Of a DNA stretch of 551 bases, positions 1-551 are shown one piece after another. The position numbers and the translations under genes are program-made. The first letter of the stretch is position 1; each line of letters begins with the position of its first letter. The notes beneath the pieces were generated by a model that had not been told where the DNA came from, ran no database searches, and was given only the letters and a program-made list of their open reading frames with translations. Source of the DNA: Escherichia coli (GTDB lineage: Bacteria > Pseudomonadota > Gammaproteobacteria > Enterobacterales > Enterobacteriaceae); the NCBI RefSeq assembly GCF_003334785.1, contig NZ_QOWV01000084.1; one strand, 5' to 3'.

Positions 1-4
1 AGTT

Positions 5-40
5 GTAGGCCTGATAAGACGCGACAGCGTCGCATCAGGC
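5..40 (-). repeat. REP/PU, Z-type-like, copy 1
   Basis: Minus-strand read is GCCTGATGCGACGCTGTCGCGTCTTATCAGGCCTAC: two 14-nt arms complementary at 12 of 14 positions (mismatches at arm positions 8-9), a 4-nt loop and a CTAC tail. It matches the recalled E. coli Z-type PU consensus apart from about one loop base. Confidence 0.85.
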
Positions 41-47
41 ATTGATT

Positions 48-81
48 GCCGGATGCGGCACAAGTGCCTTATCCGGCCTAC
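48..81 (+). repeat. REP/PU, Y-type-like, copy 1
   Basis: Plus-strand GCCGGATGCGGCACAAGTGCCTTATCCGGCCTAC: 14-nt arms GCCGGATGCGGCAC and GTGCCTTATCCGGC complementary at 12 of 14 positions, followed by a CTAC tail. The arms match the recalled E. coli Y-type PU consensus; the loop region differs from that recalled consensus. Confidence 0.85.
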
Positions 82-96
82 AGGTCGGCAATAGTT

Positions 97-132
97 GTAG
101 GCCTGATAAGACGCGACAGCGTCGCATCAGGC
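97..132 (-). repeat. REP/PU, Z-type-like, copy 2
   Basis: Identical in sequence to the PU at 5-40, offset by 92 bp. Confidence 0.85.
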
Positions 133-139
133 ATTGATT

Positions 140-173
140 GCCGGATGCGGCACAAGTGCCTTATCCGGCCTAC
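140..173 (+). repeat. REP/PU, Y-type-like, copy 2
   Basis: Identical in sequence to the PU at 48-81, offset by 92 bp. Confidence 0.85.
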
Positions 174-188
174 AGGTCGGCAACAGTT

Positions 189-224
189 GTAGGCCTGATA
201 AGACGCGACAGCGTCGCATCAGGC
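189..224 (-). repeat. REP/PU, Z-type-like, copy 3
   Basis: Identical in sequence to the PU at 5-40, offset by 184 bp. Confidence 0.85.
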
Positions 225-231
225 ATTGATT

Positions 232-265
232 GCCGGATGCGGCACAAGTGCCTTATCCGGCCTAC
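232..265 (+). repeat. REP/PU, Y-type-like, copy 3
   Basis: Identical in sequence to the PU at 48-81, offset by 184 bp. Confidence 0.85.
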
Positions 266-280
266 AGGTCGGCAATAGTT

Positions 281-316
281 GTAGGCCTGATAAGACGCGA
301 CAGCGTCGCATCAGGC
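281..316 (-). repeat. REP/PU, Z-type-like, copy 4
   Basis: Identical in sequence to the PU at 5-40, offset by 276 bp. Confidence 0.85.
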
Positions 317-323
317 ATTGATT

Positions 324-357
324 GCCGGATGCGGCACAAGTGCCTTATCCGGCCTAC
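324..357 (+). repeat. REP/PU, Y-type-like, copy 4
   Basis: Identical in sequence to the PU at 48-81, offset by 276 bp. Confidence 0.85.
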
Positions 358-372
358 AGGTCGGCAACAGTT

Positions 373-408
373 GTAGGCCTGATAAGACGCGACAGCGTCG
401 CATCAGGC
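373..408 (-). repeat. REP/PU, Z-type-like, copy 5
   Basis: Identical in sequence to the PU at 5-40, offset by 368 bp. Confidence 0.85.
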
Positions 409-415
409 ATTGATT

Positions 416-449
416 GCCGGATGCGGCACAAGTGCCTTATCCGGCCTAC
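416..449 (+). repeat. REP/PU, Y-type-like, copy 5
   Basis: Identical in sequence to the PU at 48-81, offset by 368 bp. Confidence 0.85.
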
Positions 450-464
450 AGGTCGGCAATAGTT

Positions 465-500
465 GTAGGCCTGATAAGACGCGACAGCGTCGCATCAGGC
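465..500 (-). repeat. REP/PU, Z-type-like, copy 6
   Basis: Identical in sequence to the PU at 5-40, offset by 460 bp. Confidence 0.85.
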
Positions 501-507
501 ATTGATT

Positions 508-541
508 GCCGGATGCGGCACAAGTGCCTTATCCGGCCTAC
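508..541 (+). repeat. REP/PU, Y-type-like, copy 6
   Basis: Identical in sequence to the PU at 48-81, offset by 460 bp; only the downstream linker is cut by the window end. Confidence 0.85.
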
Positions 542-551
542 AGGTCGGCAA

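Follow-up and report, generated by a model that had tools for sequence, protein, structure and literature searches.

A GTAG-tagged BIME-2 array of Escherichia coli, probably of rhaA-rhaD origin: match to the RayT substrate and a likely RayT-independent route to copy-number change

Introduction

Tandem arrays of palindromes that carry the tetranucleotide GTAG raise the question of whether a domesticated transposase recognizes them and, beyond this, whether the same enzyme is what makes them grow. We addressed this question for a 551-nucleotide stretch of Escherichia coli DNA (assembly GCF_003334785.1, contig NZ_QOWV01000084.1), hereafter called the window, which is one tandem array of repetitive extragenic palindromes (REPs). 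The enzyme concerned is TnpAREP (YafM, now RayT), E. coli's REP-associated tyrosine transposase (RAYT). Taken together, our data make it likely that the window represents a lengthened allele of the bacterial interspersed mosaic element (BIME) of class BIME-2 that lies between rhaA and rhaD in the rhaBAD operon, that its REPs are a substrate of RayT, and that its number of units changes mainly by RayT-independent slippage or unequal recombination.

That GTAG-tagged y and z2 REPs occur in BIME-2s and are recognized by RayT/YafM is already known, as this was described in 2010-2012 and refined in 2021, and all our observations agree with Ton-Hoang 2012 and Corneloup 2021. What is added here is the assignment to rhaA-rhaD (REP299), a map of the enzyme's determinants and predicted cuts along the array, and a polymorphism in 92-bp steps within a clade that lacks rayT.

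Results

The window is a BIME-2 array of the rhaA-rhaD type

A BIME-2 is defined by alternating y and z2 REPs that are separated by short linkers and arranged in tandem copies whose number varies between strains (PMC3333891). Positions 1-551 of the window form a single tandem array with a period of 92, 6.0 copies and 99% matches (Tandem Repeats Finder). Each 92-bp unit reads, in this order, AGTT, a 36-nt palindrome opening with GTAG, ATTGATT, a 34-nt palindrome closing with CTAC, and AGGTCGGCAA(T/C); in other words, a z2 REP on the plus strand is followed by 7 nt, an inverted y REP on the minus strand and 15 nt, and six such units give 12 REPs. The features are as follows (an arrow marks a predicted cut; iREP, inverted REP; the site types are explained below).

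1-551, no strand: whole array, 6 x 92 bp, BIME-2 of the rhaA-rhaD (REP299) type
5-40, plus: z2 REP copy 1, GTAGGCCTGATAAGACGCGACAGCGTCGCATCAGGC; GTAG at 5-8, lower stem 9-15/34-40, AA x GC mismatch 16-17/32-33
41-47 and every 92 nt, no strand: 7-nt tail-to-tail linker z2/y, ATTGATT; on the minus strand it leads into the type I consensus TGCC↓TGAT of the z2 iREP, predicted cut between 38 and 37
48-81, minus: y REP copy 1, minus-strand reading GTAGGCCGGATAAGGCACTTGTGCCGCATCCGGC; plus-strand CTAC at 78-81, predicted type II cut (plus strand) between 78 and 79 (site rule PMC3333891)
82-96 and every 92 nt, no strand: 15-nt head-to-head linker between two GTAG ends, AGGTCGGCAA[T/C]AGTT; holds the sole variable base
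97-132, plus: z2 REP copy 2
140-173, minus: y REP copy 2
189-224, plus: z2 REP copy 3
232-265, minus: y REP copy 3
281-316, plus: z2 REP copy 4
324-357, minus: y REP copy 4
373-408, plus: z2 REP copy 5
416-449, minus: y REP copy 5
465-500, plus: z2 REP copy 6
508-541, minus: y REP copy 6

Variation is confined to a single base, with which the unit ends: T at 92, 276 and 460, and C at 184 and 368. Given this strict alternation, the array amounts to three copies of a double unit and has a true period of 184 bp, with unit types in the order A B A B A, which implies that the latest amplification steps copied two units at once. The array probably continues past both ends of the window.

When the window was compared with 5,426 complete E. 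coli genomes by megablast, 5,213 of them gave matches, and the best full-length ones lay between rhaA and rhaD. The identical allele was absent from these genomes, the best match being 99.3% in strain 100181, and an exact 115-nt pattern taken from the window gave 0 matches in a scan of representative-genome contigs. An anchored scan showed that the rhaA-rhaD arrays of MG1655, strain 219 and strain 100181 contain units A and B base for base; in MG1655, the z2 unit of the window makes up four of the four copies and the y unit two of the five. The same y and z2 classes are also present at REP325 and in the flanks of rayT. Between rhaA and rhaD, MG1655 has 9 REPs (4 units plus a leading y REP), strain 219 has 17 and strain 100181 has 21. 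The MG1655 array corresponds to EcoCyc REP299a-i and is the only large REP cluster within an operon, rhaBAD (preprint 10.1101/2024.07.17.603846).

In its structure the window agrees with the definition of BIME-2, with six inverted z2/y pairs, linkers of 7 and 15 nt and a period of 92. Extragenic location and strain-variable copy number were seen at rhaA-rhaD in related genomes, with the spacer ranging from 82 to 1,002 bp in 92-bp steps.

Several further observations concern this locus. In the related loci, only 5 nt separate the rhaA stop codon from the first y REP; the preprint 10.1101/2024.07.17.603846 cites REP-dependent ribosome stalling and translation control by REPs within 15 nt of a stop codon, and lists REP299 among the cases. 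A common rhaA-rhaD allele of 241 bp, found mostly in strains without rayT, has one y REP and no z2-y units, and after the y REP it carries an unrelated GC-rich inverted-repeat element of approximately 150 bp with the arms GGGTGAGGG / CCCTCACCC. In the TOP10 assembly, units of the rha type lie at the end of the record amid tRNA genes, RtT small RNAs and truncated fragments of RHS and insertion sequences, a placement more suggestive of faulty assembly than of a true second locus. The XL10-Gold match, at 4,664,120-4,664,223 of 4,666,712, is likewise close to the end of its record.

Every REP hairpin has a free GTAG tail at its stem foot

GTAG occurs 12 times in the window, on the plus strand starting at 5, 97, 189, 281, 373 and 465, and on the minus strand at 78-81, 170-173, 262-265, 354-357, 446-449 and 538-541. 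This recount, with six on each strand, coincided exactly with the coordinates (5-8 and 78-81 as examples) of an earlier note that had seen GTAG or CTAC in all 12 palindromes. Shuffled versions of the window had 3.15 +/- 1.59 GTAG matches, and 0 of 200 shuffles reached 12, although the significance of this test is inflated because only two GTAG positions are independent, each being copied six times.

We then asked how the tag sits relative to the hairpin, with REP positions numbered from G1 of GTAG. Folded alone as single-stranded DNA, each REP leaves a free, unpaired 4-nt GTAG tail that abuts the 5' side of the hairpin, and in 12 out of 12 REPs this tail adjoins the G5-C34/36 pair at the stem foot. 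The hairpin itself has a 7-bp lower stem, a 2x2 mismatch, an upper stem of 4-5 bp and a 4-nt loop, and the folding energies of the two REP types are -12.8 and -11.4 kcal/mol (z -5.4 and -4.1). Imperfect palindromes of 30-40 nt with GTAG at the stem foot and a mid-stem mismatch of two bases are what characterizes E. coli REPs, and the class-specific sequences are found as well, namely GCCGGAT... in the y REPs and GCCTGAT..., with a longer upper stem, in the z2 REPs. A complete 92-nt unit also folds, on both strands, into a single long z2:y hairpin that is REPIN-like (approximately -27 kcal/mol, z -5.7) and competes with the two separate REP hairpins needed by RayT.

To see the tag beyond this array, we counted it in 290 kb of E. 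coli sequence from elsewhere, free of rha arrays. There, GTAG preceded 33 of the 36 palindromes in REP orientation (GATAAG first), but none of the 24 read in the opposite direction, 21 of which were followed by CTAC. This polarity marks GTAG as a polar, family-wide feature and not as a chance match.

The array carries all published RayT determinants and a regular set of predicted cut sites

It has been demonstrated experimentally that the substrate of E. coli TnpAREP consists of GTAG-tagged REPs; the enzyme binds REPs only as single-stranded DNA, depends on the unpaired bulge as well as on the 5' GTAG, works less well with T11A or G32C substitutions, and is indifferent to the sequence of the loop (PMC3333891, PMC8266576). 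Cleavage takes place at C↓T within the adjoining inverted REP, although the linkers can be cut as well. Two consensus sites have been described, type I, TGCC↓TGA(T/A), which occurs in z iREPs only, and type II, (G/T)(G/T/A)CC↓TAC(A/C/G), which lies inside CTAC; in vitro, strand exchange by RayT assembles multi-REP products from BIME oligonucleotides (PMC3333891). For other BIMEs, namely REPtron, araD-A and gltP-yjcO, there are published assays in which purified RayT bound, cut and transferred strands.

The y REP of the window has T11, A12A13 opposite G26C27, and G32, and the z2 REP has T11, A12A13 opposite G28C29, and G34, its 3' arm being shifted by two. All published sequence determinants (5' GTAG, 7-bp lower stem, T11, G32/G34 and the AA x GC bulge) are present in both REP types. 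The window furthermore contains 18 consensus cut sites, six of type II on the plus strand and six each of type II and type I on the minus strand. The predicted cuts are GGCC↓TACA between 78 and 79 on the plus strand, and GGCC↓TACA between 8 and 7 and TGCC↓TGAT between 38 and 37 on the minus strand, each of them +92n. No type I site is present in the y iREP of the window, in agreement with the published rule.

The proposal that these palindromes are GTAG-bearing hairpins of the RAYT type is thereby borne out, as judged from the sequence, in that they are canonical E. coli y and z2 REPs. Two related proposals need rewording. The 12 candidate sites in alternating orientation are indeed 12 tags on two strands, but since RayT binds single-stranded DNA only and acts on one strand at a time, they amount to six binding REPs per strand, with six (plus) or twelve (minus) consensus cut sites. 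Likewise, the idea that the enzyme acts near GTAG is right as far as recognition goes, but the cut falls at a C↓T of the inverted partner next to it, which may lie inside that partner's CTAC, or in a linker. We envisage that, once a strand becomes single-stranded, its GTAG-first REPs would form bulged hairpins whose 5' GTAG is left free, that RayT, an HUH Y1 enzyme, would bind the GTAG-tailed hairpin and then cut the neighbouring inverted REP at the sites listed above, and that it may cut in the linker as well and rejoin strands. At the sequence level, the array of the window is a predicted RayT substrate, with binding, cleavage and strand transfer in vitro taken from the literature.

rayT is intact and flanked by the same REP classes in the closest relative

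Among the 5,426 complete E. coli genomes, 3,575 (66%) carry rayT and 34% do not, in agreement with Ton-Hoang et al., who found tnpAREP in two-thirds of strains (PMC3333891). The rayT gene of MG1655 has yafL and lfhA as its neighbours, with z2 and y REPs on its flanks. Strain 100181 has an intact rayT in the same place, with the HMH and YIYI motifs kept, one z2 REP upstream and both y and z2 REPs downstream of the gene, and its RayT protein matches PDB 4ER8 with E = 6e-113. Strain 219, which belongs to a different lineage and has the 17-REP array, also has an intact rayT. A search for a RAYT gene flanked by the same REP class, which had been suggested as a check, was therefore positive in the proxy genomes 100181 and MG1655, with rayT also present in 219; neither the lack of a RAYT nor a RAYT associated with another REP class, either of which was to count against the proposal, was encountered in the proxy genomes.

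In the rayT-less strain 2020N21-246, the yafL-flhA spacer consists of 274 bp of BIME remnants, and blastn found no rayT in this spacer or in the surrounding 100 kb. The z2 iREPs of this spacer end in GCCGAC and not in GCCTAC, a possible sign that the GTAG/CTAC tag is eroding at the site that lost the enzyme gene.

The array varies in 92-bp steps, also in a clade without rayT

To follow the length of the array across strains, we fused the final 700 nt of rhaA, the initial 700 nt of rhaD and rayT into one chimeric query, with which the span of the joined rha match gave the length of the spacer and the number of match places in a record gave the presence of rayT. By this count, rayT is indicated in Combat11I9, L26 and 23CRST011. 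In two evenly spaced samples of the species, the spacer measured 82 bp (one y REP), 82 + 92n, or belonged to one of a few other series. Strains with the same flanks also varied, as the spacer was 1,002 bp in 100181 and 266 bp in ZF8-1, with 174 bp in all of approximately 35 O157:H7 genomes. The K-12 derivative C600 has a spacer of 358 bp compared with 450 bp in MG1655, one unit fewer between identical flanks, which is either a change on the time scale of laboratory culture or an assembly error.

The clade around strain 2020N21-246 bears on the role of RayT. Its 60 closest relatives are 100% identical over 1,400 bp of flanking sequence and all are without rayT, and their spacers are 368 bp (27 genomes), 276 bp (10), 184 bp (22) or 92 bp (1). 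RayT is thus dispensable for copy-number change at rhaA-rhaD.

The order of unit variants gave further information on the size of the steps. Strain 219, with the map ABCG-ABCD, contains a duplication of a 368-bp block, the MG1655 array ABCD, and in its hybrid unit G the last y REP is joined to the linker that follows the first y REP. The maps of 23CRST011 (A'BCEFAD) and Combat11I9 (A'BBCEEFFAD) are three single-unit steps apart. In both strains the z2 REP of the first unit after rhaA lacks 3 nt (GCGACATCGC for GCGACAGCGTCGC), and with them part of the loop and of the 3' arm of the upper stem, which leaves a unit of 89 nt; this shared 89-nt unit places the two arrays in one lineage. The window itself, with the map (AB)n, repeats a 184-bp block. 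Steps of one, two and four units are expected of misalignment between near-identical repeats.

Slippage or recombination versus RayT as the source of new units

Tandem repeats with a unit of about 92 bp rearrange by RecA-independent slippage and unequal crossing-over. At rhaA-rhaD, unit number would change mainly because near-identical 92-bp units slip during replication or recombine unequally, independently of RayT, and RayT would be likelier to stand behind the rise and dispersal of the REP family than behind each step at this locus. RAYT activity and recombination had been put forward as equally plausible routes to the amplification, which was a fair starting point; the rayT-less clade now tilts the data towards recombination or slippage sufficing, and we regard this as the more economical route, with RayT as a possible contributor.

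The competing view that RayT built the array is improbable on present data. In such a case, a cut in an iREP would prime synthesis, and a second cut with strand transfer would add one BIME (model 7B of Ton-Hoang), or an excised single-stranded BIME circle would be copied by rolling circle (model 7C), here a 184-nt circle of A+B giving (AB)n. The multi-REP products obtained in vitro (PMC3333891), the consensus cut sites every 92 nt on both strands, and the strict A B A B A order, which fits the repeated copying of a two-unit template, all speak for it, as do the rayT-positive state of every checked genome with at least seven units and the somewhat longer arrays of rayT-positive genomes in the spread sample. 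The 92-bp-step polymorphism in a clade without rayT speaks against it, and neither the duplication of a four-unit block in strain 219 nor the mixture of step sizes is predicted by the addition of one unit at a time. RayT recombination in vivo is undemonstrated in published work. Ton-Hoang et al. saw only minor differences in REPs and BIMEs between tnpAREP-positive and tnpAREP-negative strains, and stated that neither the mechanism nor the frequency of BIME amplification is known (PMC3333891). A mobilome study found REP299 protected from exonuclease under stress, but detected no DNA circles derived from it or from any other REP array (preprint 10.1101/2024.07.17.603846), and REP325 constructs were stable on plasmids. 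The association of length with rayT, finally, is confounded by phylogeny and of low power, as only 2 of 77 rayT-positive and 0 of 41 rayT-negative genomes from both samples exceed 460 bp.

A RayT-independent origin of the length changes nonetheless has several points against it. The variation in the rayT-less clade could consist entirely of deletions from a three-unit ancestor, so that a RayT-free gain of units is presumed. All duplication junctions lie inside REP sequence, where the RayT sites also lie, which makes the two routes indistinguishable by junction; in strain 219, for instance, the crossover fell within approximately 41 nt of y REP homology that contains a type II site. All five of the checked genomes with at least seven units carry rayT. 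In the first evenly spaced sample, the median spacer was 266 bp with and 241 bp without rayT (naive Mann-Whitney p 0.008), and the maxima in the two samples were 542 and 1,002 bp with rayT compared with 450-460 bp without; the difference points towards RayT, but with no correction for phylogeny and so few long alleles it is weak, and it was left aside when deciding on the mechanism. In addition, the presence of rayT is taken from proxy genomes, the best of which matches the window at 99.3%. A more far-reaching possibility, which we consider rather doubtful, is that RayT drives the expansion of the array in vivo, with alleles of at least six units arising only in rayT-positive lineages, for example through rolling-circle copying of a 184-nt two-BIME circle into (AB)n, while lineages without rayT would undergo losses alone. 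In that event, the spacer between rhaA and rhaD would report naturally on RAYT activity, something never yet seen in vivo.

Host functions and chance as explanations of the tag

Along a different line, the GTAG/REP structure might be kept for the host, with RayT irrelevant today, through protection of the mRNA 3' end and partial termination in rhaBAD, control of rhaA translation, or binding of gyrase, Pol I or HU. We think this unlikely, even though the rayT-less strains keep every tag of their rha arrays (4 GTAG and 5 CTAC in MB22, 3 and 4 in 2020N21-246), since such retention may reflect a recent loss of rayT (Ton-Hoang, PMC3333891), and CTAC has already been lost from the REPs at the former rayT site of one rayT-less strain. 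The array is also intercistronic, with a first REP whose distance from the rhaA stop in the related loci is within the 15-nt range given in the preprint, and REP325, a similar BIME-2, has been described as an mRNA stabilizer and a partial Rho-dependent terminator. However, an RNA stem-loop can do without GTAG, which is not part of the hairpin, and RayT is the only factor shown to read this tetranucleotide.

That the GTAG pattern is a mere by-product of chance in a repeated 92-bp unit, or the array an artefact of assembly, is barely conceivable. Such readings can draw on the two independent, sixfold-copied GTAG positions and on the scrambled regions in which some assemblies (TOP10, XL10-Gold) place units of this kind, but we rejected both on account of the polarity counts (33/36 versus 0/24) and of the spacer lengths in many strains, with 1 to 21 REPs in exact 92-bp steps at the same locus in hundreds of independent complete genomes.

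The rhaA-rhaD array is hypervariable, lies between two conserved genes and is found in rayT-positive as well as rayT-negative lineages. This combination makes it a convenient locus at which to ask whether a domesticated transposase still acts in vivo.

Comparison with known systems

The nearest known counterpart is the E. coli BIME-2 at rhaA-rhaD (REP299a-i), with which the window shares the z2/y REPs, both linkers (7 and 15 nt) and unit variants A and B. They differ in copy number and order: in the window, six units or more alternate strictly as A B A B A, whereas MG1655 has A B C D plus a leading y REP.

Against the covariance model of naRNA4/REP325 (Rfam RF02564), the y-z2 pairs of the window score 76.6 bits six times on the minus strand (8-78, 100-170, 192-262, 284-354, 376-446 and 468-538), compared with a gathering threshold of 59.5, a match that is explained by naRNA4 itself being a BIME-2 unit. 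REP325 differs in its locus (yjdM-yjdN), its 100-bp period and its loops and linkers. On the plus strand, which the rhaBAD mRNA would carry, the score is 53.2 and below the threshold, so that the transcript would present the weaker orientation. A nucleoid role of naRNA4 is disputed in a 2026 preprint. Other Rfam matches of the window were sub-threshold noise from microRNA families and were dismissed.

Compared with IS200/IS605 elements, in which TnpA acts on subterminal hairpins, the likeness lies in an HUH Y1 enzyme with specificity for single strands and in an imperfect hairpin with a 5' guide-like tetranucleotide. The rha array is no autonomous element, however; rayT is single-copy and immobile, the cleavage specificity is reduced to C↓T, and both strands of the array would be substrates, as its REPs alternate in orientation. 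The REPIN-RAYT systems of Pseudomonas (Bertels and Rainey) resemble the array in their inverted REP doublets of approximately 80-100 nt that fold into one long hairpin (-27 kcal/mol for the 92-nt z2:y unit) and in a single-copy, domesticated RAYT. Theirs are group 3 RAYTs with short, perfect palindromes in mostly dispersed doublets, whereas the E. coli rha array belongs to group 2 and has bulged REPs that are tandemly amplified at one locus.

The array also agrees with the TnpAREP/RayT-REP system of E. coli (REPtron Ec; Nunvar 2010, Ton-Hoang 2012, Messing 2012 with PDB 4ER8, Corneloup 2021). The GTAG tail, the bulged imperfect palindrome, T11, G32 and the CC↓T sites of the inverted partner are all shared, and in related genomes rayT is flanked by y and z2 REPs. 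At the sequence level there is no difference between the two, although the rha array is present in strains from which rayT has disappeared, too.

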